64,000 bases of DNA. Origin: a virus. Numbering within the stretch: the stretch's first letter is position 1; each line of letters begins with the position of its first letter. Positions 2,744 to 21,133 of this stretch are shown here, piece after piece. The DNA lies in IMG/VR virus record IMGVR_UViG_3300010371_000036, positions 1 through 64,000 of that record, one strand, 5' to 3'. A model generated the notes under the pieces. It had not been told where the DNA came from, did not search any database, and saw only the letters and a list, made by a program, of their open reading frames with translations. Made by a program: the position numbers and the translations under genes.

Positions 2744-5124
2744 CAGACCCTCCGGCGCGGGTAAAGCGCGACCGCCTTGACGAGAACGCCCGAGAACTCA
2801 CTCTCCAACTCGCTCGCGGACGGAACCCGGGTTCCGTCCTTCCGGAGGTTCTCCCAGATCGCCCGATCGAGCGCCCGCGCCTTCTCCGTAAACGTGAAGC
2901 CGCGGGCCCACTCCATCGTCTTCGTCGCCTCCGGGACCGTCGTCCGGAACCGCCCCGTCCACTCGAGCGAAGCGACGACGTTGTCGACGAACTCCTCCGG
3001 CATCGTCGGGCGGAGCCGCGGCAGACGGAGGTCCCGCCTGTAGACGTCACCGAGCGCGTCCCGCTCGTAGTAGACGACCGAGACGCCGATCGCGAGGCAC
3101 TCCATCATCGAGACCGAGAACGTCTCGCACGGCATCGGCGGGTCGAGCGGGAACGGGAAGACGCTCGCCTCGGAGAGCTCCCGGAGGACCTCCGCCCGCG
3201 AGAGGTTCCCGAGGAACCGGACGGCGCTCATCTCGGGTCGGATCGGGGCGATCGTCTTCAGAACCCGATCGGTGCGGAGTCCCTGCCGGCACGCCTTCCC
3301 CGCGTAGTGGGTGAGCCAGCCGGCGACGTCGCCGACGACGTGGAGCGTCGCCTCGGGGAACCGGCGGACGATCTCCGGCCACGCCTCGAGGAGCTCGTGA
3401 AGCCCCCGACTCGCGCTCGTGTGGTAGACGCAGCGGCCGCGGACCGGGCGGTAGTCCGGGAGGTCCGGCTGGATCGCGTTCGGCATCACGTACCAGGGCG
3501 CCTCCCCGTCGTAGACCGTCCGGAGCGCGTCGGCCGCGTACCGGCTCGGCGCGAGGTTCACGTCGGTCCACTCGAACGCGCCCGGGTGCGGGACCTGGAA
3601 CGTGTGGTGCGAGGCGACCCGGAGGCAGCCGGAGACGCCGACGAGCGGACTCGTATCGTAGTACGCGACAAGGACGTCGCGATCGCCGTCCTTGTCGAAC
3701 TCGGAGAGCGGACGGTAATCGGCCCCTCCGACGTCCGTCTTCCCCGTCCACTTGAACGTCGAGTACGCCCGGACCTCGTAGCCGAACTTCGGGAGCTCCC
3801 GCACCAGGCCCATGAAGCCCGCCCGGCAGCCGCCGCCAGAGTTCGAGTCGAAGGGCCTGTTGACGTCGATCGGCTCCGGGCCGGACGCGTACGGCGTCAG
3901 CACGAGGTCGATCCGCGCCTTCGCCTTCACCTCGGCGCGGACGCTCGGCGCCGGCGCCCGCTTCGCCGCGACCCCCTCGACGAGGTAGCCCTCGAGCCTC
4001 TTCGCGAGCACGCGCCAGTCGTGCCTCCGCGCGTGCTCCGCCCCGATGTCCGCCACCTTAAGCCGGAGCTCCTGACTCTGGAGAGCCCCGACGACGAGCG
4101 TCCGGAAACTATCCATCCGCTCCCCGACCGGGTGCCGGACGACCGCCGCCGCGTTCCCGTGGACCTCCTCGAGGCAGTCCGCCGAGGAGATGACCGGGAA
4201 GGCGCCGGCGGCGCACGCCTCGAGCGTCGCGACCGAGAACGTCTCGGTGAACGCGAGCGGCGCGCACGGGTAGGCGAAGACCTCCGCCTCGCAGAGCTCC
4301 TTGACGAGCTGTCGGTGCGAGACCCCGCCGACGCGCGTGACGCCGTGCCCCTCGAGCCGCCGGAGCGCGTGCCGGATGTAGAGCGCCCGGCGCGTGCACT
4401 CGTGGTCGACCGGACCCCCGAACCGCTTCGAGGGGTCGCAGTGGTAGGCGAGCCACGTCTCGAGGCTCTGGTAGTAGATCCGAAGCTCCGCGTTCGGGAC
4501 CGCCGCCCGGATCTCCGGCCAGACCTGGAGGAGGAGGTGAAGGCCCCGGTCCGGCGAGGACGTGTACGCGACCCGCCCGGGGACCTTCTGCTTCAGTGCG
4601 CCGCGGAACTGCTCCGGGTAGCACCCGTTCGGCAGCACCCGGAACTTCGCCCGGGCCGCCTCCGGGAGCGGCCCCGCGACGTGCGCCTTCGCCGTCTCGC
4701 TCGGGACGAGGTAGAGGTCGACGAACGCGTCGAAGCCCGCCGTCTCGTACTCGAAGGAGTCGATCCCGAAGGAGGCGACCTGGCGGTTGACGACCCGGAG
4801 CGCGCCCGCCGGCGCCTCCCGAAGCGCGTTCGGGTTCGACGTCGCGATGACGGCGTCCCACGCTACGCCCTTGCTCCCGATGTCCCAGGCGGAGAAGTCG
4901 AGGACCTGAACCCCGTCGTACGACGCACCCTCCTCGCCGACCGCGTGGCAGTAGAGCGTCACCTCGTGGCCGAGCGCCGCGAGCTCCTTCGCGTAGTAGA
5001 GGCAGACGAGGTCCGTCCCGGTCAGCCCCGCCTTCCCGCCCTCGAGGTCATCGAAGTCGAGCGGCGCCCGGTGCTGCCCGAAGGCGACGGGCGCGTAGAG
5101 AAAAGCGATCTTGAGCTTGTTCAC
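2740..5124 (-). CDS. tandem double GT4 (GT-B) glycosyltransferase
   Basis: GTG 5124 start; two repeats of YTSSPDRGL/YHTSASRGL...ETFSVATLEA/ETFSVSMMEC. Confidence 0.85.
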   Translation of the reverse strand: MNKLKIAFLYAPVAFGQHRAPLDFDDLEGGKAGLTGTDLVCLYYAKELAALGHEVTLYCHAVGEEGASYDGVQVLDFSAWDIGSKGVAWDAVIATSNPNALREAPAGALRVVNRQVASFGIDSFEYETAGFDAFVDLYLVPSETAKAHVAGPLPEAARAKFRVLPNGCYPEQFRGALKQKVPGRVAYTSSPDRGLHLLLQVWPEIRAAVPNAELRIYYQSLETWLAYHCDPSKRFGGPVDHECTRRALYIRHALRRLEGHGVTRVGGVSHRQLVKELCEAEVFAYPCAPLAFTETFSVATLEACAAGAFPVISSADCLEEVHGNAAAVVRHPVGERMDSFRTLVVGALQSQELRLKVADIGAEHARRHDWRVLAKRLEGYLVEGVAAKRAPAPSVRAEVKAKARIDLVLTPYASGPEPIDVNRPFDSNSGGGCRAGFMGLVRELPKFGYEVRAYSTFKWTGKTDVGGADYRPLSEFDKDGDRDVLVAYYDTSPLVGVSGCLRVASHHTFQVPHPGAFEWTDVNLAPSRYAADALRTVYDGEAPWYVMPNAIQPDLPDYRPVRGRCVYHTSASRGLHELLEAWPEIVRRFPEATLHVVGDVAGWLTHYAGKACRQGLRTDRVLKTIAPIRPEMSAVRFLGNLSRAEVLRELSEASVFPFPLDPPMPCETFSVSMMECLAIGVSVVYYERDALGDVYRRDLRLPRLRPTMPEEFVDNVVASLEWTGRFRTTVPEATKTMEWARGFTFTEKARALDRAIWENLRKDGTRVPSASELESEFSGVLVKAVALYPRRRVW
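2819..2838. repeat. 20-bp palindrome copy 2, inside the glycosyltransferase C-terminus (DGTRVPS)
   Basis: GACGGAACCCGGGTTCCGTC. Confidence 0.97.
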
Positions 5125-7778
5125 GTTCCGACCTCCCGGTGCTCCCGGTACTCCGGGAGGCGTCCCATACCCGCGTCGATCATCAGGTCCTCGAAGAGCG
5201 CGTCCCACTGCTCGGCGACGCCGTCCCAGCGGAACGCGCGGAGCGCCTCCTCGCGCGTCTCCTCGCGCGTGTGGCCGCGGAACTGCCCCGGCACCGGGTC
5301 GTCGAAGTAGAGCGCCCCGACCGCCGCCTCGACGAACTTCTCCTGGTACTCCGCGGAGACCCAGTCCCCCTCGACGAGGCGGCCGTAGTCCCCGACCGTC
5401 TCCGGGAGCGCCCCGACCGGCGAGGTGACGATCCGGAGGCCCGCGGCGCGCGCCTCCATCGCGCTCATGCAACTCGTCTCCGGGTACCAAGTCGGGTAGA
5501 GCCACGCGCCGGCGGAGCACATCGCGGCGGCGAGCTTCTTCCGCGGGACGCGCCCGTGGTACCTCACGCCGAAGGAGCCCATACGGGCCATCGACCGCTG
5601 GATCACCTCGACGAGGAACCGGTGCTGCTGGTCCTTCGACTCCCCCGCCTGGAGCTTCCAGCCCTCGAAGGAGTAGTAGACGTCGAGCGTCGCCTCCGGG
5701 ACCCGCGAACGGATCGCCGGCCACATCTCGAGCAGCGCGCCGAGGCCGCGGTCCGGCGAGGAGCAGTAGATCGCCTTGTGCCGGTCGCGCGGAGGGTAAA
5801 CCGCGTTCGGCGAGTAGAGCGCCGGGTCGACGCCGTTGCGCGTGACGAAGACCTGGCTCTCCGGGATCCCGTGCTCGCGGACGAGGTTCCCCTTGTGCCA
5901 CTCCGAGAGCGCGAGGAACCGGTCGGCGAGGAGCGAGTACTCGTAGGTCATCCCGATCGCGGTCGTGTCGTGGCACCACATCAGGCGCGCCTTCGCCTCC
6001 CCCTGGGCGAGCAGGGGGGCGAGGCGCCAGGCGACGAGGACGTCGACCTTCGGCCGGAGGTCCGGCGTCCAGGTGACGTAGTCGACGTCGCCGGCGAACG
6101 TCCCCTCCTCCCCGGGCGCGCCGTAGACGGTCACGCGGTGACCCATCTTCCCGAGACGGCGCGCGAGCTCGACGACCGCCGTCTCGCTCCCGCCGTGCCC
6201 GTACCGCTCGACGAGGTCGGGGTTCCAGGGCTCGCGGGCGGGCCCGCACATGAACGCCACCGAGAACGCCTTCGAGGGGAATCGGAACTGACCGCTCAGC
6301 GTCGCGACGCCGATAGGCGTCGGGGCACCTTTCCACAACGGACGGAACCCGGGTTCCGTCTTCGGCGGTTCCATCGGGAGACCGGCGATCGCCCGGACCT
6401 GCATCTCCCGCCGCGCATCCGGCGTCAGGGCCGAGGCCATCTTCCCCAGGTACGCGTCGTCGTGGTGGGGCGCCGGGACGGGCGCGCTAAGGATCCCCTC
6501 ACCCGCCCGGAACGTCGTCGCCTTCCCGGACGGAACCGATCGGGAGACGCGGACGCTCACCTTCGCCTCGCCCGCCATGAACTTCGGGTCCGCCCCGGCC
6601 CCCGGGAGCACCCTCGACGCCTTCGCCGGCGCACAGAGCTTCGCCGTCGTGTAGCGCTTCAGGGCGAAGCGGAGCTGGGGGTGGTCCGGCACCGCCTCGA
6701 GCGCCCGCTCGGTCGCGCGGATGGCCGTGTCCCACTCCCCCTCGACCTCGGCGGCGGTCCGGATCAGGTCGTGGATGAAGAACGCGCGGTCCGCCGGATT
6801 GCGCCCGATCGGCGTCCGGGTCTCCGGCGCCGCGAGCGCGTTGAAGCCGTGCGCGATCACGTCGAACATCGCATCCGGCTCGCCGAGGAGGGTCCCGCGG
6901 AGCATCGCGAACCGCGCCCGCGCGTACTCGACCTCGAACGCCCCCGGCGCGTACCTCTCCGCCCGGTCGACCCAGTCGCGCGCCCGGTCGAGCCCCGCGC
7001 GCCCGACGTCCGCCGAGAACGCGCAGTCCGCGGCGCGCAGGCACGCGAGGGCCTGCTCCTCCGGCCAATTCGAGAACCCTACGTGCTCGGCGAAGTGCCC
7101 CTCCGCCTCCCGGTACCGGTGGGCGCGGTGGAGCTCGAAGCCGAGGTTGATGTGCGTCCAGGCGTCGAGGTGCCCGGCCGCGTACCACTTCTCGAGGATG
7201 GCGAGCGAGCGGCTCCGGGCCCCCGTCTCCGTCCGCTTGTGGACCCAGCGGACGTCCTTCATCCAGTAGTCGAGGCCCGGGTCGTAGCCGCCGGCTTGCT
7301 TCGTCAGCCCCTCGTGCGTCGGGTGCTCCCAGACCCAGGAGCCGTCGTTCGGGACGAGCCGCTCGCGCCACTGCTGCCGGGTGACCAGGCCCGTCGTCGG
7401 GTCGAACTCGTAGTCGTACGGCGCGATGAGGCGCGCCGCCGCCGCGCGGCGGTCCCCGAGCTTCGCGTTCGCCTCGCGGATCTCCCGCGCGATGTGCTCC
7501 GCCCCGACGACGACGTCGTCCGTATCCATCCACATGATGTACGGCTGGGTCGCGAGCTCAAAAGAGATGTTCCGCGTGTACGCGAAGTCGTCCCTCCACG
7601 AAGAGACCGTCCACGTATCCGCGACCTTCACCGTCCGCGCCTTCGCCTCGGACGGCGCATCGTCGTCGACGACGATGCAGACCTGCTCGACGTACGGGCG
7701 GACCGAGGCGACCGCCTGCTCGAGCAGCGGATCGTCTCGGAAGATCATGCAGAGGGAAACCGGGGCCTTCGTCGTCAT
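5121..7778 (-). CDS. GT2 + TPR-like + GT4 fusion glycosyltransferase
   Basis: N-terminal VSLCMIFRD...WRDDFAYTRN...WMDTDD...HE (SunS-like GT2), helical repeats, then GGSETA...SSPDRGL...YPETSCMSAMEA (GT4). Confidence 0.85.
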   Translation of the reverse strand: MTTKAPVSLCMIFRDDPLLEQAVASVRPYVEQVCIVVDDDAPSEAKARTVKVADTWTVSSWRDDFAYTRNISFELATQPYIMWMDTDDVVVGAEHIAREIREANAKLGDRRAAAARLIAPYDYEFDPTTGLVTRQQWRERLVPNDGSWVWEHPTHEGLTKQAGGYDPGLDYWMKDVRWVHKRTETGARSRSLAILEKWYAAGHLDAWTHINLGFELHRAHRYREAEGHFAEHVGFSNWPEEQALACLRAADCAFSADVGRAGLDRARDWVDRAERYAPGAFEVEYARARFAMLRGTLLGEPDAMFDVIAHGFNALAAPETRTPIGRNPADRAFFIHDLIRTAAEVEGEWDTAIRATERALEAVPDHPQLRFALKRYTTAKLCAPAKASRVLPGAGADPKFMAGEAKVSVRVSRSVPSGKATTFRAGEGILSAPVPAPHHDDAYLGKMASALTPDARREMQVRAIAGLPMEPPKTEPGFRPLWKGAPTPIGVATLSGQFRFPSKAFSVAFMCGPAREPWNPDLVERYGHGGSETAVVELARRLGKMGHRVTVYGAPGEEGTFAGDVDYVTWTPDLRPKVDVLVAWRLAPLLAQGEAKARLMWCHDTTAIGMTYEYSLLADRFLALSEWHKGNLVREHGIPESQVFVTRNGVDPALYSPNAVYPPRDRHKAIYCSSPDRGLGALLEMWPAIRSRVPEATLDVYYSFEGWKLQAGESKDQQHRFLVEVIQRSMARMGSFGVRYHGRVPRKKLAAAMCSAGAWLYPTWYPETSCMSAMEARAAGLRIVTSPVGALPETVGDYGRLVEGDWVSAEYQEKFVEAAVGALYFDDPVPGQFRGHTREETREEALRAFRWDGVAEQWDALFEDLMIDAGMGRLPEYREHREVGT
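6341..6360. repeat. 20-bp palindrome copy 3, in the GT2/GT4 linker (TEPGFR)
   Basis: GACGGAACCCGGGTTCCGTC. Confidence 0.97.
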
Positions 7779-10575: not shown

Positions 10576-11154
10576 TCAGCGGGCGCGGCGGGGCGGGGGC
10601 GGGAGCTCGTCGCCGTAGTGCGTCCACGCCGGGTCCGGCGTCCCGTCCGGGAGGAGCCGCCGGCGCCGCGCGTGCATCTCCGCGTAGGGGCCGAAGCAGA
10701 GGTCCTCGACGAGGTCATAGAACGCGTCCGGCTTCCCGGAGTGCTCGCCCACCGGCGCGTCGAACGTGTCGAACGTGCTCCGGACCGAGAGCGACCGGAG
10801 GACCGGGCGGCCGCGCCGGAAGACGAGGCAGGTCTCGTGCTCGTTCCGCGCCGTCCGCCCCATCCCGAAGTGCCGGTTCCCGTTCTTCGTCCGCTTCACC
10901 CAGACGAGCTCCGCGCCCGTGTACTCGAAGCCCCAGGCCCGGCCGACCGCGAACGCCTCCTCCGCCATCGCGCCGACGCGCCAGAGGAAGAGGTGGCAGT
11001 CCTCGTGGAGGCGCGGGAGCTTCTCGGCGCAGATCGCCTCGATGCTCGCCGCCGTGGTCTTGTAGATCTTCCGGACGCCCCGGCGCGGCCCCGGGAGCTG
11101 GTCCCGGAACGGCCAGGCCGGGTCGCAAACAAGCACGCGCGGTAGGTCCCTCAC
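10576..11154 (-). CDS. MT-A70 family adenine methyltransferase
   Basis: DPAW (cf. DPPW), HLFLW, WGFEY, WVK, FGMG...RNEHE, HSGKP, EMHAR, GDE. Confidence 0.85.
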   Translation of the reverse strand: MRDLPRVLVCDPAWPFRDQLPGPRRGVRKIYKTTAASIEAICAEKLPRLHEDCHLFLWRVGAMAEEAFAVGRAWGFEYTGAELVWVKRTKNGNRHFGMGRTARNEHETCLVFRRGRPVLRSLSVRSTFDTFDAPVGEHSGKPDAFYDLVEDLCFGPYAEMHARRRRLLPDGTPDPAWTHYGDELPPPPRRAR

Positions 11155-12071
11155 TTCGCACCTCTCAGCTTCCAGGTCGAGTGCTCGCGCCACCCGTCGT
11201 GCTCGAGGACGCCGGCGCGCCGGAGCTCGAGGAGGCGCCCGTCGAGCCGCGAGCGGGGGATCCCGAGCGCCGCGCGGATCGCCGCGCTCCCGGAGGAGCC
11301 GGCGCCGCGGAGGTACTCGACGATCCGCGCCTTCTCCGCCTCGATCCCCGCCCGGCGCCCGGCCCGGGTGTAGGACGGAACCCGGGTTCCGTCCGCGGGG
11401 CGGACCCTCGGCATCCGCGCCGTCTCCCGCGCGTCGACGAGCGCCTGAGCCTCCCGGAGCGGGACGCCCTCGAGGTAGAGCCCCGCGACCTCCTCGGCCC
11501 AGGCGTCGGCCTCCGCGTCGAACTCCTCGCCGAGGAAGTCGCTCGCCCGCCCCTCGCTCTTCCGCGAGTCCTCCCCGCCGCCGTTCTCCCCCTCCGCCTC
11601 CGCGAAGGAGGGGGCCTCGTTCATCCGCTCGCGGAGGTAGTCGACGAACGCCTCCCGCTCGCCGGGCGTCAGCTTCCGGAGGAGCCGCTCGAGGGCGCGG
11701 ACCTCGAGCTGTCGGACCCGCTCGCGGCTCATGTTCATCAGGCCGGCGATCTCCTCGAGCGCCGCGCCGCCCCGGTCCGCGACGTCGAGCGCGCACGACT
11801 CGGGCATGTCCTCGACCTCGCGCGACGGGAAGTTCCAGACGATCGTGTCGCCGCGCACCCCCGCGACGTCGAGGTAGAGGTGGTAGCGACACGAGACCAT
11901 GGGGCACGGCCGGCTCGTCCCCCGACAGTCCTCGCGGCCGGCGGGGAGCGCGTGGTCCGTCCCGTCCCGGAGGACGGGGAGACGCCGGCGACTCCGCCAG
12001 ACCCCGGAGTCGTCCCCCCGGACCCTCTCGCGCCGCGGGGCGCCCGCGCGGGTCCTCCTCGCGGCGCTCAC
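11151..12071 (-). CDS. Cys-rich sigma-70 region-4-like HTH DNA-binding protein with a C-terminal winged HTH
   Basis: DCRGTSRPCPMVSCRYHLYLDV...CALDVADRGGAALEEIAGLMNMSRERVRQLEVRAL. Confidence 0.8.
   Translation of the reverse strand: MSAARRTRAGAPRRERVRGDDSGVWRSRRRLPVLRDGTDHALPAGREDCRGTSRPCPMVSCRYHLYLDVAGVRGDTIVWNFPSREVEDMPESCALDVADRGGAALEEIAGLMNMSRERVRQLEVRALERLLRKLTPGEREAFVDYLRERMNEAPSFAEAEGENGGGEDSRKSEGRASDFLGEEFDAEADAWAEEVAGLYLEGVPLREAQALVDARETARMPRVRPADGTRVPSYTRAGRRAGIEAEKARIVEYLRGAGSSGSAAIRAALGIPRSRLDGRLLELRRAGVLEHDGWREHSTWKLRGAK
11374..11393. repeat. 20-bp palindrome copy 4, in a CDS linker (DGTRVPS)
   Basis: GACGGAACCCGGGTTCCGTC. Confidence 0.97.
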
Positions 12072-12418
12072 TCCGACCGGCTCACGGTCGGGACGCAGTA
12101 CCCCTCGCCCCCGAAGTCGTCCGCCCGGCCGCTCGGGAGGACGAGCTTCACGGCCGCGCCGCGCGGGTCGCTGTTGAACTTCACGGTTACGGGCTTGTCG
12201 CGCAGCGTGAAACGAACCCGTCGCTGGAGCCAGATGACCCGGGCCTGGTGCTCCCGCATGTCGACGATCGGCTCGTTGCACTCCCGGAGGTAGAGCGCGT
12301 AGAGCTCCGTCGAGAGGTCAATGAGCCGGCGCGCCAGAACGCCCACCTTCTCCGGGCTCTTCTCGATCTCCGCTAGGACGGCCCCGAACTCTGCCACCTC
12401 GCTCACCTTGATCGGCAT
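12068..12418 (-). CDS. hypothetical phage protein (FNSDPRG motif)
   Basis: Clean ORF with coupled overlap. Confidence 0.7.
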   Translation of the reverse strand: MPIKVSEVAEFGAVLAEIEKSPEKVGVLARRLIDLSTELYALYLRECNEPIVDMREHQARVIWLQRRVRFTLRDKPVTVKFNSDPRGAAVKLVLPSGRADDFGGEGYCVPTVSRSE

Positions 12419-12439: not shown

Positions 12440-13165
12440 CTAGTCACGAATGGCGACCCACCCGGCGAAGTTCATCCAGCGCCAGAAGCAGTCGACGGCG
12501 CGGAACCCCGCCTGCCGGAGGATGTCCTCGTTCCAGCGAGCGGTCACCGGGACGAGGACCCCCTCGAGCGCGCGCCGCTTGCGCTCGATCTCCTCGCTGC
12601 CGTACCCGTTCGCACCCTTCAGCTCGTGGTAGCGCCCGACCATGAGGGAGTCGACGTCCGCCGACTCCCCGAGCACCTTCTCGACGAGCACGAACACGCC
12701 ACCCGGCGCGAGGCGCTGGTAGACGTCCCTCACGATCCCCTGGCGATAGTTGATCGGCACGAACTGGAGCGTGAGCACCGAGAGCACCGCGGCGCACCCT
12801 GAAGACCACGCCCGGTCCGCCGGCTCGCGGAGATCCCAGTCGCGGACGAGGACGTTCTGGCGACCCTCGAAGCGACGCCGGAGAACGTCGAGCATCGGTG
12901 GCGATCGCTCGATCGCCCAGAACTGCCGCACCGCCGACGACCTCTCGACGAGGGCCGCGATCGCGTCCCCGCGCGAGCTCCCGAGGTCGACGACGTCGCC
13001 GGGCAGCACGTCGAGGAACCCCATCGTGATGTCCTCGACGGACCGGCGCATGACGCCGTACTGCGGGATCGACCGCTCGAGCATATCCGGGAAGACGTCG
13101 ACGACCCCGGCGTCGAACTCCCACTTCTCACCGGACGGGACGTGCTTGACGCTTGATTCACTCAT
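12440..13165 (-). CDS. cmoA: carboxy-S-adenosylmethionine synthase (CmoA-like)
   Basis: WEFDAGVVDVFPDMLERSIPQY, DLGSSRG, LTLQF, PGGVFVLVEK, KGANGYGSEEIERKRRALEGVL, AGF...FWRWMNF match CmoA along the whole length. Confidence 0.88.
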   Translation of the reverse strand: MSESSVKHVPSGEKWEFDAGVVDVFPDMLERSIPQYGVMRRSVEDITMGFLDVLPGDVVDLGSSRGDAIAALVERSSAVRQFWAIERSPPMLDVLRRRFEGRQNVLVRDWDLREPADRAWSSGCAAVLSVLTLQFVPINYRQGIVRDVYQRLAPGGVFVLVEKVLGESADVDSLMVGRYHELKGANGYGSEEIERKRRALEGVLVPVTARWNEDILRQAGFRAVDCFWRWMNFAGWVAIRD

Positions 13166-14562
13166 GGCTTCCAACCTCCGAACCTGTCCTGGTGAGCACG
13201 CGCGTAGAGGGCGCGGGGATCGGCGATCTGCGACTCGATCGCGCGCTTGAGGCCCATCCCGTCCTGGAACGCGACCTTCGGTCGGCGCAAGACGCTCTCC
13301 GGCAGGAGCCCGCGCATCGCGTCCCGGAGGACCGCCTTCGTCACGCTCCCGCGCTGCACGAGCGGGCGCTCAAACGAGAGCACCCGCTCGACGAGCGCCG
13401 GGTTCAAGAACGGCAGGCGGCACTCGACCGAGCTCCGCATGAAGACCTTGTTCGCCCGCGGGAAGTTCTTGCGCGACTGACCGAGGAAGGACTCCTTCCG
13501 GAAGCCGTGCCAGCCGCGCGTCTGGATCCCGTGGTAGGCGAACCCGTACGACCCGAAGAGCTCGTCGGCACCCTCCCCGGAGAACGTCACCTTGAAGCCG
13601 TCCGCGCTCATGCGCTCCGCGAGCTTCATGCACGCCCAGGCGATCTCCACCTGCGACTTGAACGGCATCTCGATCGCGTCGACGACGCGCGCGAGGTCCT
13701 CCGCGCTCGGGCACTCGACCGGGACCTCGACCAGCCGGACGCCGAGCATCTCCGCCGTCTCGCGCGCGCCCCGCAGGTCCCGGGACTTCGCGTCGAAGAC
13801 TGCCGTATACGCGACGAGATCCGGCACGTGCGGCCGGAGCAGCGCGGCGATCGCCCCGGAGTCGACCCCGCCCGAGAGCAGCGCGCACACCGGGACGTCG
13901 GCGATCCTCCGCTCCTCGACGCTCGCGCGGAGGAGCCCCAGGAGCTCCTCCGCGGCCTCCTCCGGCTCCGCCGCCTTCGGCAGCGCGGGGACGTCGACCC
14001 AGCGCCTCGAGCGCACGCGACGACCGTCCGACTCGACGATCTCCCCCGGCCCGACGTCCACGATCCGCGTCGGGTCCGCGCCGAGGGCGAGGAGGGCCCG
14101 CGCCTCGCTCGCGAAGTAGAGCGGCGCCTGCGCCGCGTAGTGGAGCGGGACCTCGCCGAAGCGGTCGCGCGCCAGCCGGACCCACTCCCCGTCGCCGCTC
14201 GTCCAGGCGATCGCGAACATCCCGTTGAACTTCGGGAGCGCAGCGTCACCCCAGCGCGCGAGGGCGGCCGCGACGACCTCCGTGTCCCCCGGAGTCCGGA
14301 ACTCCTCACCGAGCGCCGTGAGCTCAGCGCGGAGCTCCCGGTAATTCCAGAGCTCCCCGTTGTACGCGAGCGTGAGCTGCCCCCGCTTGAACGGCTGCGC
14401 GGAGCGATCGTCGAGGTCGATGATCGCGAGACGGGCGTGACCGAGCACCACCGCGCCGTCGGTGACGACCGCCTGCGCGTCCGGGCCTCGGTGCCGGATC
14501 GTCTGGAGGGCGCGCTCCACGGCGGACGCGGCGCCGCCGACGGTCCCGACGATCCCGCACAT
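13162..14562 (-). CDS. asnB: asparagine synthetase B-like glutamine amidotransferase / ATP-dependent amide ligase
   Basis: MCGIVG, HRGPD, GHARLAIID, YNGELWN, NGMFA, RDRFG, LSGGVDS, SGEGADELFGSY, RLPFL. Confidence 0.93.
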   Translation of the reverse strand: MCGIVGTVGGAASAVERALQTIRHRGPDAQAVVTDGAVVLGHARLAIIDLDDRSAQPFKRGQLTLAYNGELWNYRELRAELTALGEEFRTPGDTEVVAAALARWGDAALPKFNGMFAIAWTSGDGEWVRLARDRFGEVPLHYAAQAPLYFASEARALLALGADPTRIVDVGPGEIVESDGRRVRSRRWVDVPALPKAAEPEEAAEELLGLLRASVEERRIADVPVCALLSGGVDSGAIAALLRPHVPDLVAYTAVFDAKSRDLRGARETAEMLGVRLVEVPVECPSAEDLARVVDAIEMPFKSQVEIAWACMKLAERMSADGFKVTFSGEGADELFGSYGFAYHGIQTRGWHGFRKESFLGQSRKNFPRANKVFMRSSVECRLPFLNPALVERVLSFERPLVQRGSVTKAVLRDAMRGLLPESVLRRPKVAFQDGMGLKRAIESQIADPRALYARAHQDRFGGWKP

Positions 14563-15923
14563 CAGCGCGGGACCTTGAAGATCTTGTCTCGGATCGCCGC
14601 CGCGACCGCGCGCATCATCACCGGTGGGACCGCACGGCCGCACCGCTCCCACTGCTGCGCGTACGTCCCCGCCAGGATGAAGTCGTCCGGGAAGGAGCAG
14701 ATCCGCCGGAGCTCGGCGATCGTGAACTTCCGGATCTCCGTCGGGTGCTCGGCCGACGCCTCTTCCTCGACCTTGTAGTGGCACGAGTTGAGGGAATCGA
14801 CGCCGACCGTGATCGCCGGGCACGGACGGTCCGTGATCGTCACGTCTTGCGCGAATGCCCCAGACGTATCGTGCGCGTCGCGCACGATACGCGCCTCCAC
14901 CGTCGAGGGCGGACTCCGACCGTTCCCCGAACTCGGCCCCGCACCGATCGTCTGCGACGGGTTCGTGCTCGAATGCCAGGCGCTCGTCCCGTACGGCGAG
15001 TTCGCCATCTGCCGGGTCACGTGCGGCAGCGCGTCGCGGATCGAGTACCTGTACGGGAGCGGCTCCGGGTGCACCGGGTCGAGCCCGAGGTCCGTGCGCA
15101 CGCCGACGAAGATGACGCGCTGCCGGCACTGCGGCACCCCGAGCCACTGCGCGTCGAGCAGGCGCGCCTTGACGCGGTACCCGCACGCCTCGAGCGCCGC
15201 GTGAATCTCCTTGAAGTACCCCTTCGCGACCCCGCGCACGAGACCCGCGACGTTCTCCGCGACGAAGACCTTCGGCTGGAGACCCTTCAGGATCCGCGCG
15301 TACTCGAAGAAGAGGTCGTCGGTCCGCTGCTGCGTGTCCGAGTACGTCTTCTCCTTGCCCCAGTGCTTCTCCCGCTTGCCGGCCGTCGAGAAGCTCGCGC
15401 ACGGCGGGGAACCGTCGAGCACGTCGAGCTCTCCCACCTCGAGACCCGTCGCCGCGAGGATGTCCTCCGCCGTCACCGTGCGAATGTCACGCCCGTCGAG
15501 GATGGTCGACGGGAAGTTCGCGGCGTACGTCTCGCGCGCCATCTCGACGAACTCGCTCGCCCAGACGACCTTCATCCCGGCCATCGCGTAGCCGAGGCTC
15601 GAGCCGCCCCCTCCAGAGAAGAGGCTAACGACCTTGAGACCCGTCGGCGGGAGCGCTCGGATCTCCTCCATCGACGGGACTCGATACGGCGGCTTCTCCC
15701 GCGGCACGACACCCGGCGACGAGGCCACCGTAGAGGTCTCGGACAGCGCCGGCTTCGACGCGCTCGACGATGACGCGCTCTCGCTCAGGGTCGTAGACCG
15801 CGACCCCGAGCGCCGCTTTGCGGTGCGCGATGGCGATCGACTTCCGGAGCCGGATGCGGAGGAGGGAGACGATCGCCGCGTCGATCGCGTCGAGGTCACG
15901 GCGGGCTTCTTCGACTTGGGCAT
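14562..15923 (-). CDS. C5-cytosine DNA methyltransferase homolog, predicted carboxymethyltransferase (start ATG 15923 or GTG 15707)
   Basis: Motif I FSGGGG, IV GSPPCASFS, VI ENVAGL, VIII PQCRQR; motif X reads GRAVPP instead of GNAVPP. Confidence 0.92.
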   Translation of the reverse strand: MPKSKKPAVTSTRSTRRSSPSSASGSGSRSPSRTAKRRSGSRSTTLSESASSSSASKPALSETSTVASSPGVVPREKPPYRVPSMEEIRALPPTGLKVVSLFSGGGGSSLGYAMAGMKVVWASEFVEMARETYAANFPSTILDGRDIRTVTAEDILAATGLEVGELDVLDGSPPCASFSTAGKREKHWGKEKTYSDTQQRTDDLFFEYARILKGLQPKVFVAENVAGLVRGVAKGYFKEIHAALEACGYRVKARLLDAQWLGVPQCRQRVIFVGVRTDLGLDPVHPEPLPYRYSIRDALPHVTRQMANSPYGTSAWHSSTNPSQTIGAGPSSGNGRSPPSTVEARIVRDAHDTSGAFAQDVTITDRPCPAITVGVDSLNSCHYKVEEEASAEHPTEIRKFTIAELRRICSFPDDFILAGTYAQQWERCGRAVPPVMMRAVAAAIRDKIFKVPR

Positions 15924-15948
15924 CGAGGATCAGAACTGGAAGTGGCAT
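15625..15948 (-). CDS. chorismate mutase (AroQ/type II), overlapping its neighbours
   Basis: EEARRDLDAIDAAIVSLLRIR...IAHRK...VAVYDPERERVI matches the AroQ pattern R-x2-ID-x-ID-x2-I-x2-LL-x2-R...K...DPxRE. Confidence 0.8.
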   Translation of the reverse strand: MPLPVLILDAQVEEARRDLDAIDAAIVSLLRIRLRKSIAIAHRKAALGVAVYDPERERVIVERVEAGAVRDLYGGLVAGCRAAGEAAVSSPVDGGDPSAPADGSQGR

Positions 15949-16460
15949 CGGGGGCACTCCCGCGCGAGGTGCATCCCGCCCGGCTCGAGGTTCTTGAACT
16001 CCGGCGGGGCGCTCGGGGGCTCGATGCGCGCCAGGAGCAAGTCGAGGTCCTTGTCCTCGTAGTTCGTCGCGAGGAGGTCCCCGTCGTCGCGGAGCGCCTT
16101 GAGCAGCGACGCGAGCTGCACGTCGTCGTAACTCGCGAGGTCGCTCGTCCGGTTGTCGAGCGCCAAGATCTTCCGGGCCTGGCGCTCGGTGAGCGAGTGG
16201 AGCTCGACGGGGATCTTCTTCATCCCGAGCTCCTTCGCCGCCTTCCAGCGGTGGGAGCCGACGAGGATCTGATTCGTCTCCTGCCAGACGAACACCCGCC
16301 CGTAGAACCCGACCTCCTCGATGCTCCGCTTGATCGCCGGGACGTTCCCGCGCCGGGCGTTCTCCGGGTGGGGGGCGATTGCGTCGATCGCGACGACCTT
16401 CTTCACCCCCTCGAGGATCTGCGGGATAGGCGCCTTCGTCTTCTTCTCAGCTCTCGCCAT
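15930..16460 (-). CDS. ParB/Srx-like N-terminal domain protein with a C-terminal CPxC
   Basis: PHPENARRG, IKRSIEEVGF, ILVGSHRWKAAKELG, LALDNRTSDLA. Confidence 0.85.
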   Translation of the reverse strand: MARAEKKTKAPIPQILEGVKKVVAIDAIAPHPENARRGNVPAIKRSIEEVGFYGRVFVWQETNQILVGSHRWKAAKELGMKKIPVELHSLTERQARKILALDNRTSDLASYDDVQLASLLKALRDDGDLLATNYEDKDLDLLLARIEPPSAPPEFKNLEPGGMHLARECPRCHFQF

Positions 16461-16499: not shown

Positions 16500-17072
16500 T
16501 CAACGTCCGAGGTAGAGGGCCGTCGCCCCGACCTCGCTCAGGCCGAAGCAGGCGATCGCCACCGCGTCGCACTCGTCGCTGTTGAACCGCGCCCCCGCGG
16601 CCCCGAACGCGAGCTGGACGGCGAGCTTCCGATCCGTCCCCCGGGGGATGACCCCGAGGAGCTGCTTCCGGACCATCGCCTCGGCGACCGGGTAGAGCGT
16701 GACGCCGTGCCGGCGCCGGAGCTCGAGGCGGATCGCCATCCCGAGCTCCGGGAGCTGGTGGGCGCCCGCCCCTCCGGCGTTGAAGCCGTAGTTCTCGACG
16801 AACCCGGCGACGCGACCGCCGCCCGGCTCGACCCGGAGCTGGTCGAGGAAGTCCCCGACGGCGCCGGCGATCGACTCGATCCGCGCACACCGCGCATCCT
16901 CGTACTCGAGGACCGAGAGCGCCTTCCGGTCCGGCGGCTTCGTCGGGTAGGACATCGTCCGGACCGAGGACCAGTCCCCGAGGAGCCAGTGGGGAGGGAG
17001 GAGCGCCGCCGCCGTGCGCGTCAGCGACGCGTCGACGCCGAGCACCCAGGGGAACCTCTCGCGGCGGCTCAC
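16500..17072 (-). CDS. ruvC: RuvC-like Holliday junction resolvase
   Basis: VLGVDASLTRTA, VENY, ELG, DECDAVAIA. Confidence 0.75.
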   Translation of the reverse strand: MSRRERFPWVLGVDASLTRTAAALLPPHWLLGDWSSVRTMSYPTKPPDRKALSVLEYEDARCARIESIAGAVGDFLDQLRVEPGGGRVAGFVENYGFNAGGAGAHQLPELGMAIRLELRRRHGVTLYPVAEAMVRKQLLGVIPRGTDRKLAVQLAFGAAGARFNSDECDAVAIACFGLSEVGATALYLGR

Positions 17073-17497
17073 GGCTCGTACTTCGGGAGCTTCGGCGCGC
17101 CCGGGTCATAGGGCCCGCCCTTCGTCTCGAAGAAGAGCGTCGGCGCCTCGTCGTTCCGCGCGTAGCGGATGTAGGAGAGGAGCTCCCTCATCAGGTCGGA
17201 GCCGAGGACGGCCTGGAGCGCGATCCGCTCGATGGGGGAGACCGCCCGCTCGAGCGTCACGACGACGTGCTGCCGGCCCGGCTTCCCGCTCGGTGAGGGC
17301 CTCACCACGTAGGTGAGCGGGACGTGCTCCCGGAGCTTCGCGACGCGCTCGAGGAAGAACTCCCACGCCTCCGCGGAATCGATGTCGAGAAAGAGCTCGC
17401 GGGCGCGGGGCTTCACGACGACGCGGCCCTTCTTCTCGGCGTCGCTCTCCGCCTTCTCGAGGCGGTCGTAGCCACTCGTCGCTAGGTCGCTCGCCAT
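17069..17497 (-). CDS. hypothetical protein
   Basis: Clean ORF (LFLDID, SPSG, LQAVLGSD). Confidence 0.7.
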   Translation of the reverse strand: MASDLATSGYDRLEKAESDAEKKGRVVVKPRARELFLDIDSAEAWEFFLERVAKLREHVPLTYVVRPSPSGKPGRQHVVVTLERAVSPIERIALQAVLGSDLMRELLSYIRYARNDEAPTLFFETKGGPYDPGAPKLPKYEP

Positions 17498-20488: not shown

Positions 20489-20714
20489 CGAGGAGCTCCA
20501 CCAGGCGGTCGCGGTACTTCTTCGCCTCCGCATCCTGGCTCACGGCGAGCTTCTCCAGGGTCTCGACGGTGATCGCCGCGACCCGGCTCCCCGGGAAGGA
20601 GAGCCGGAGGAGCCCCGCGATCATCCGGTACGTGTCCCGGCTCCCCTCGCGTAAGCCGAGATCGTAGGAGATCGCCCCGAGCGCCTTCTCCCGCTCCGTC
20701 ATCTCGGCCGGCAT
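20478..20714 (-). CDS. hypothetical protein (MPAEMTER...)
   Basis: TGATG overlap. Confidence 0.6.
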   Translation of the reverse strand: MPAEMTEREKALGAISYDLGLREGSRDTYRMIAGLLRLSFPGSRVAAITVETLEKLAVSQDAEAKKYRDRLVELLDGP

Positions 20715-21133
20715 CAGAGGACCCCCGCTCTCTGGAGCGTCGAGCGCGCGAGCTCGTAGGCCCCGGGCACGTTCCACGACCGCGAGAGACCGCTCGGGTG
20801 GGGGAGGAAGACGAAGGTCCGGGGCCCGGAGTCGTCGACCACGTTCTCCGCGAACGTGAACCCGAACGCGCTCTGGACCTTCGCGCCGAGGAGGACGAAG
20901 GCGCCGACCTTGCGCTCGGCGAGGAGCTCGAGGGCCCGGGCACGCGCCTCCCGGATCCGCCACGGGCCGGCGCAGAGGTTCGCCCGGTCGAAGCGGGAGA
21001 TGTAATCCCGGATCCCCAGACCCATCACGAGCCGGCAGAGGCGACCGCCGGCGGAGTTCTCCGGAGCCGGGTAGAGCGCGTAGCGCGGATCGCTCCCGTA
21101 CGGGTTCGACTCGCCGACGAGGAGGGGCTTCAT
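20714..21133 (-). CDS. uracil-DNA-glycosylase-like protein
   Basis: LLVGESNP, SAGGRL, NL, VLLGAKV, LPHPSG. Confidence 0.65.
   Translation of the reverse strand: MKPLLVGESNPYGSDPRYALYPAPENSAGGRLCRLVMGLGIRDYISRFDRANLCAGPWRIREARARALELLAERKVGAFVLLGAKVQSAFGFTFAENVVDDSGPRTFVFLPHPSGLSRSWNVPGAYELARSTLQRAGVL

Follow-up and report, generated by a model that had tools for sequence, protein, structure and literature searches.

A probable CmoX-type DNA cytosine C5-carboxymethyltransferase with a motif X arginine, encoded in a compact gene cassette of an uncultivated high-G+C phage

The closest described system is that of Synechococcus phage S-B43, whose enzyme SpCmoX (structure 8YF3) transfers the carboxymethyl group of carboxy-S-adenosylmethionine (Cx-SAM) to the C5 of cytosine at GC sites of double-stranded DNA, accepting Cx-SAM only and not S-adenosylmethionine (SAM) (Yang et al., Nat Commun 2025; PMC12783734). 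In the crystal structure, released in September 2025 ahead of the December 2025 publication of the natural switch, Arg350 contacts the carboxymethyl group of Cx-SAM in place of Asn304 of M.HhaI, and it is said to mirror the engineered M.MpeI N374K (PMC12783734). Mutant R350N accepts neither SAM nor Cx-SAM (PMC12783734), indicating that the motif X Arg is necessary but that the switch is not simply reversible. Cx-SAM is supplied by a phage CmoA, the cellular form of which serves tRNA modification, and the asparagine-synthetase homologue SpCmoY ligates glycine to the new carboxyl; the S-B43 genome carries the modified base, and the modification gives resistance to HhaI (PMC12783734). The accompanying survey listed 5,615 CmoX candidates, 4,257 CmoA and 2,251 ligases (PMC12783734). 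Here we describe a related locus in a 64,000-nucleotide stretch of viral DNA (hereafter the window; positions 1 to 64,000 of IMG/VR virus record IMGVR_UViG_3300010371_000036), where the gene at 14562..15923 on the minus strand very probably encodes a CmoX-type DNA cytosine C5-carboxymethyltransferase, lying in a coupled CmoX/CmoY-like/CmoA-like cassette behind a ParB-like gene.

A basic residue in place of the motif X Asn also lets engineered enzymes, namely M.MpeI N374K, M.MedI N377K and variants of M.CviPI, use Cx-SAM and make 5-carboxymethylcytosine (5cxmC), according to PMC12783734 and to the accessible portions of PMC13288465 and PMC12015181. These enzymes carry Lys, whereas SpCmoX and the window enzyme carry Arg, and their targets are CG or GC by design. 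In the same accessible text, M.MpeI N374K (28% protection) and M.MedI N377K (>99%) keep their methylation activity with SAM, unlike SpCmoX, which uses only Cx-SAM. A later paper of the M.MpeI N374K laboratory mentions the subsequent discovery of 5cxmC in the genomes of phages (PMC13288465). The first-pass annotation of the window had cited two engineered precedents for a basic residue at this position. M.MpeI N374K is confirmed as an engineered carboxymethyltransferase in the accessible portions of PMC13288465 and PMC12015181, whereas no confirmation was obtained for 'E. coli Dcm N436K': searching the literature in full text gave unrelated papers only, and the accessible portion of PMC13288465 holds no occurrence of it.

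The longest open reading frame (ORF) of the transferase gene encodes 453 amino acids (aa) and matches PF00145 (1.2e-56, residues 96-444) and TIGR00675 (dcm; 1.3e-53). Its motif X lies at 14622..14651 on the minus strand, where the reverse complement, TGG GAG CGG TGC GGC CGT GCG GTC CCA CCG, translates to WERCGRAVPP. The CGT codon at 14634-14636 thus specifies Arg430 (residue 346 in the 369-aa form called by the source) where canonical enzymes carry Asn, and both the motif and the codon position agree with what the first-pass annotation had read. The canonical motif X Asn (G-N-S/A-V) was not found in the window transferase, which has G-R-A-V instead, and in a full-length alignment with M.HaeIII (E 3.5e-24) Arg430 stood opposite the Asn of the canonical G-N-A-V-P. 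The other catalytic motifs were all canonical; the enzyme shares its domain and motifs I, IV, VI and VIII with C5 methyltransferases such as M.HaeIII and M.HhaI and differs from them in carrying Arg in motif X. Motif IV, S172-P173-P174-C175 with the catalytic cysteine, is encoded at 15399..15410 on the minus strand and corresponds to S95-P96-P97-C98 of SpCmoX at an alignment offset of 77.

The best PDB sequence match of the transferase was 8yf3_A, both with the single sequence (E 5.2e-68) and with a 32-sequence family profile (E 3.6e-93). We built an AlphaFold2 model from the same 32-sequence alignment, with a mean predicted local distance difference test (pLDDT) of 79 and a predicted template modelling score (pTM) of 0.79, poor only in the target-recognition region (pLDDT 47-64). 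Its top Foldseek match was again 8yf3, 'DNA cytosine C5-carboxymethyltransferase in complex with Cx-SAM' (E 1.1e-27), followed by M.HaeIII and M.HhaI. Arg430 aligned to Arg350 of SpCmoX (residues 393-447 against residues 313-367 of chain 8yf3_A, i-Evalue 5e-11), and C175 to chain residue 98. Likewise, the ungapped alignment at offset 77 paired F102, E124, F125 and D146 with SpCmoX F25, E47, F48 and D69, all of which are cofactor (adenine/ribose) contacts in the residue list and numbering of PMC12783734. At the level of sequence, all the features by which Yang et al. call a CmoX, namely the SPPC motif and the residue equivalent to R350, are present.

The window enzyme and SpCmoX thus have in common the fold, the catalytic motifs, the SPPC cysteine, the cofactor contacts and the motif X Arg, as well as a neighbourhood with a CmoA gene and an asparagine-synthetase-type ligase. 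They differ in that overall identity is about 32% in the Foldseek alignment, the target-recognition region is unaligned, so that a sequence other than GC may be recognised; the ligase of the window has a glutamine amidotransferase domain, whereas the assayed SpCmoY is a glycine ligase. Phage and host are also unrelated to those of SpCmoX, the window contig having 71% G+C. The equivalence of Arg430 with Arg350, the exclusive use of Cx-SAM by SpCmoX and the CmoA-like gene two genes downstream support the earlier suggestion that this Arg is a naturally occurring counterpart of the engineered Asn-to-basic switch. That natural switch has already been published and generalised (PMC12783734), and the window enzyme is a further member of the known CmoX family.

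The cassette lies on the minus strand in the order ParB-like, CmoX, CmoY-like, CmoA-like. Directly upstream of CmoX, a gene at 15930..16460 (minus strand) encodes a 176-aa protein with a ParB N-terminal domain (PF02195, 3e-06). Downstream, the ATG of the CmoY-like gene (13162..14562, minus strand) overlaps the stop codon of CmoX by one base (TGATG), and the likely ATG of the CmoA-like gene at 13165 overlaps the CmoY-like stop as ATGA. Because stop and start codons overlap at both junctions, CmoX, the CmoY-like and the CmoA-like genes look like one translationally coupled unit.

Two products of this unit accompany the transferase. The CmoY-like protein, a putative amide ligase of the glutamine-hydrolysing type with 466 aa, starts with M-C-G-I-V-G in an N-terminal Cys2 amidotransferase domain (PF13522/PF13537), which is followed by an asparagine-synthetase PP-loop domain with SGGVDSG (PF00733). 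Over 98% of its length it is 50.3% identical to gp124 of Streptomyces phage TurkishDelight (UniRef100_A0A7T0Q3R0), the representative of the second-largest CmoX-associated ligase cluster, for which the use of glutamine-derived ammonia has been predicted (PMC12783734). The CmoA-like gene, a candidate carboxy-SAM synthase gene at 12440..13165 on the minus strand (alternative start TTG 13174), has TIGR00740 (CmoA) as its best family (6e-40), and its product aligns along its full length with E. coli CmoA 4GEK (residues 17-243 to 31-256, 2.7e-29). A K-R pair in EIERKRRALEGV of this protein aligns with K198-R199 of E. coli CmoA, of which R199 has a role in substrate binding.

From this gene content we propose a four-step pathway. 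CmoA would convert SAM and prephenate to Cx-SAM. CmoX would then flip out a cytosine, with Cys175 attacking C6 and the C5 carbanion taking the carboxymethyl group of Cx-SAM, while Arg430 would hold the carboxylate where methyltransferases have Asn; the product would be 5-carboxymethylcytosine. The asparagine-synthetase-like enzyme would adenylate the carboxyl and amidate it with glutamine-derived ammonia from its own N-terminal domain, giving 5-carbamoylmethylcytosine, and the modified DNA would presumably be protected from host restriction. We infer the same chemistry for the window enzymes in the first two steps from their strong homology to the assayed SpCmoA and SpCmoX; that ammonia serves as the amine is a prediction, as are the nature of the final base and the target. 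An end product of 5-carbamoylmethylcytosine, as predicted for the glutamine-dependent CmoX/CmoY branch and here in an uncultivated phage of 71% G+C, is in our estimation an evenly balanced proposition. To our knowledge, 5-carbamoylmethylcytosine is a predicted DNA base that has never been observed. Our literature search, within the accessible portions of the sources, gave no report of its production by this pathway in phage DNA.

To place the motif X Arg in its family, we read this position in homologues of the transferase. Of 8,000 proteins scored in a search, 7,547 had E values up to 1e-3, and in the best 120, window protein included, motif X was G-R in 116 and G-N in four, with SPPC in 120/120; the 32 sequences of the family alignment all had Arg. 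We then fetched 164 loci, consisting of viral contigs (four from the single-sequence search and 80 from the profile search) and 80 bacterial genome contigs, and searched them by tblastn (E up to 1e-5) with the CmoA-like, CmoY-like and ParB-like proteins of the window. We excluded 18 loci, 12 of the Arg and six of the Asn type, whose downstream flank was shorter than 1500 bp. A CmoA-like gene was found at 95 of 130 Arg loci and at none of 16 Asn loci, and a glutamine-type CmoY at 34/130 and 0/16, respectively. ParB was upstream of both types among loci with at least 800 bp upstream (56/110 Arg, 8/16 Asn); being equally common, it follows the methyltransferase family rather than the cofactor. 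The arrangement of the window recurs: the order CmoX, CmoY, CmoA was present in 24/25 loci with both CmoY and CmoA, and the glutamine-type CmoY lay directly downstream of CmoX in 31/34 loci.

Several observations weigh against assigning the window enzyme to this pathway. At the residue level, the motif X stretch of M.HhaI aligned R430 with N304 but was insignificant by itself (0.1 bits, domain i-Evalue 2.9e3; HMMER), and M.MpeI was absent among the PDB matches of both the single sequence (E up to 1e-3) and the family profile (E up to 1e-5), so that the equivalence of R430 with N374 rests on published statements. Significance was reached with 8YF3 (R350) and M.HaeIII (Asn), on which the equivalence of R430 relies, the link from R350 to N304 being drawn from the structural overlay in PMC12783734. 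The target-recognition region, approximately residues 281-392, was unaligned with SpCmoX (HMMER) as well as poorly modelled, hence the GC specificity of SpCmoX is not transferable to the window enzyme. GC sites hold 32% of the cytosines of the contig, and up to 32% of all cytosines would be targets if CmoX had kept that specificity. Additionally, the CmoA-like protein scores 137.4 bits, below the NCBIfam TIGR00740 equivalog cut-off of 193.3.

Further points of this kind come from the survey. On a FastTree tree of 157 members, built with the motif X column included, Arg and Asn changed state only twice, so that just two contrasts are independent (p 0.5 in a sign test). For the Arg/CmoA contrast, a Fisher p of 8e-9 therefore overstates the case, and the linkage, whose presence had been put forward as a check, is a clade-level pattern, not an independent statistical proof. 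There was no CmoA-like gene inside the fetched flank at 35 of the 130 Arg loci. In Erwinia and Dickeya jumbo phages (~260 kb; for example NC_061450.1 and NC_048054.1), however, a CmoA homologue lies at ~12-13 kb and the transferase homologue at ~30 kb of the record, so that a CmoA missing from a 10-kb flank does not mean a genome without CmoA. Where CmoA-like matches were found at Arg loci, 35/95 had at least 38% identity to the window protein and 60/95 were weaker (<38%). TIGR00740 was the best NCBIfam family, but below its cut-off, in 9/9 weak matches taken at random from 63 weak Arg-locus matches, as it was in TurkishDelight gp125.

The 60 weak CmoA-like neighbours are of a shorter, divergent type of ~214-240 aa, 23-32% identical (for example L105:11289-11969, L145:11292-11960 and L044:3162-3806). 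In several of those sampled, the match to the CmoA model stops near position 190-208 of 239.

The remaining points against the full pathway concern the ligase, and they feed the alternative that fares best, namely that CmoX and CmoA act as proposed, with the ligase being a plain metabolic asparagine synthetase or attaching some other amine, and with the base being 5-carboxymethylcytosine or a different amide. The CmoY-like protein scores above the cut-off of TIGR01536 (glutamine-hydrolysing asparagine synthase; 296.9 vs 267.1 bits), so sequence does not by itself separate it from a plain asparagine synthetase, and it aligns with E. coli AsnB 1CT9 over residues 20-439 (5.3e-44), matching the glutaminase motifs RHRGPD and NGE. 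The sole assayed CmoY, SpCmoY, takes glycine and not ammonia, and in the glutamine-hydrolysing cluster the enzyme tried was insoluble and no member has been assayed (PMC12783734). Nevertheless, the window gene is flanked by CmoX and CmoA and overlaps both at its start and stop codons, the conserved order and the position next to CmoX in the survey argue against this alternative, and the glutamine-type CmoY is found with Arg and never with Asn loci in our set. Cys2 is kept in 34/35 long CmoY-like homologues, which argues for a working glutaminase and thus for ammonia as the amine. We therefore regard this alternative as unlikely, though it deserves more weight than those that follow.

Much less probable is that the transferase is an ordinary SAM-dependent 5-methylcytosine methyltransferase that tolerates Arg in motif X, its CmoA-like neighbour serving another purpose. 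In its favour, the window transferase is canonical in its remaining catalytic motifs, and close Asn-type relatives, at roughly 50-60% identity, belong to the same family. Wild-type SpCmoX, however, has the same Arg and takes only Cx-SAM (PMC12783734); moreover, the Arg is fixed in nearly all close homologues, and the CmoA-like gene accompanies the Arg type and not the Asn type in the counts given above. That the transferase acts on RNA, for instance on tRNA like Dnmt2, extending the tRNA role of cellular CmoA (PMC12783734), can practically be dismissed: Dnmt2-type tRNA enzymes share the fold and give weak matches (1g55, 9hgm, ~1e-07), but the DNA enzymes 8YF3 and M.HaeIII score far higher, SpCmoX modifies double-stranded DNA in a phage whose genome holds the modified base (PMC12783734), and a ParB-type DNA-binding protein is the usual upstream neighbour.

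Returning to the CmoX assignment, we compared the Arg and Asn members of the family column by column. Position 430 was the only alignment column whose consensus (at least 80%) differed between 135 Arg and 22 Asn members; since this position itself defined the groups, the result to note is the absence of any further column that tracks it. At the 80% consensus level, no second-site determinant of cofactor choice was found. The 22 Asn members (L003-L006, L029, L030, L032, L033, L038, L062, L083, L097, L115, L117, L125, L127, L134, L142, L143, L158, L160 and L162) form about two clades. With a sole discriminating column and about two changes of state, natural methyl- and carboxymethyl-transferases may, judging from these sequences, differ by essentially one residue, a reading that conflicts with the inactivity of SpCmoX R350N. 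The Asn-type sister clades resemble the Arg type in their ParB neighbour, and at the 16 Asn loci with sufficient flank neither a CmoA-like nor a CmoY-like gene was found; these clades offer natural controls for the choice of cofactor, the determinants of which are relevant to the engineered carboxymethyltransferases used in methylation sequencing.

The window lies on a single contig of 72,288 bases with 70.9% G+C, in which nearly all genes are on the minus strand. The contig encodes a family-B DNA polymerase, a primase, a DnaB-like helicase and further helicases, as well as a UvsX-like recombinase, an SbcC/SbcD-like pair and a baseplate protein, indicating that it represents all or much of the genome of a tailed phage. 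Among 50,697 phage records, none held a relative of the family-B DNA polymerase with more than 26% identity. In the same 50,697 GenBank records the closest match was TurkishDelight (NC_073473.1), with 47.9% identity for the transferase. TurkishDelight gp121-gp125 follow the order of the window, with ParB, ParB, a methyltransferase (G-R), a glutamine amidotransferase and a methyltransferase (CmoA-like), and among the ORFs compared, which did not include the CmoY ORF, only cassette genes are shared. In Pseudomonas phage PaBG, ParB and a G-R transferase are accompanied by CmoA and a short asparagine synthase; the window CmoA-like protein is 45% identical to the CmoA-like protein of PaBG and 28% identical to gp125 of TurkishDelight.

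Similarly, with the CmoY ORF again outside the query set, no fetched locus matched more than three window ORFs, and in 14/15 top loci the matched ORFs were cassette genes only, among the matches listed. Sharing of the cassette alone on otherwise unrelated phage backbones fits a movable unit, and these comparisons of gene content are consistent with movement of the cassette among phages that infect different hosts. The window is a clean, tightly coupled example of the glutamine-dependent pathway variant on such an unrelated backbone, and its gene set or homologues could supply the soluble glutamine-type CmoY that the published work did not obtain. As to the host, a weak hint is given by the closest CmoX sequences, which are from metagenome bins of Gemmataceae.

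Some bacterial bins carried several Arg-type loci: one Verrucomicrobiales bin had four (L092, L099, L106 and L110), another Verrucomicrobiota bin had six (L093, L101, L103, L148, L151 and L153) and a third had five (L100, L111, L114, L154 and L156). These loci often have a ParB-like gene upstream and a weak CmoA-like gene downstream. Their repetition within a bin suggests multi-copy prophages or other mobile elements carrying the cassette.

The start of the transferase gene is one of ATG 15923, GTG 15728, GTG 15707 or the ATG 15671 used by the source (369 aa). Just 5' of ATG 15671 the ORF encodes E-K-P-P-Y-R-V-P-S, which fits the family consensus KPPYRVPSM, and the alignment to TurkishDelight begins at residue 67. 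Because of this conserved stretch and of the extent of that alignment, the true start is probably earlier than 15671, at GTG 15707, GTG 15728 or ATG 15923. If translation starts at ATG 15923, residues 1-65 form a Ser/Arg-rich low-complexity tail, for which third-position G+C gave no clear coding support.

We also looked at the composition of the contig. Observed/expected ratios of tetranucleotides (mononucleotide expectation) were 0.17 for CTAG, 0.30 for TGCA, 0.43 for GGCC, 2.9 for GATC and 5.0 for TCGA, departures that are probably driven by codon usage in a genome of 71% G+C. The depletion of GGCC (0.43) and CTAG (0.17) was considered as a clue to the target site and gave nothing usable.

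Around the cassette, the ORFs at 16500-17072, 17069-17497, 20714-21133 and 12068-12418 gave no Pfam match. A few kb away, a large protein of ~860-1000 aa encoded at 5121-7700 (minus strand) contains GT4/GT1 glycosyltransferase domains (PF13439, 4.2e-13), together with a weak TPR match below the Pfam cut-off. Finally, about 1.2 kb downstream of the cassette, at 10576-11250 on the minus strand, there is a candidate MT-A70-type (adenine N6) methyltransferase gene (PF05063, 2.2e-09), the product of which has a D-P-A-W motif.

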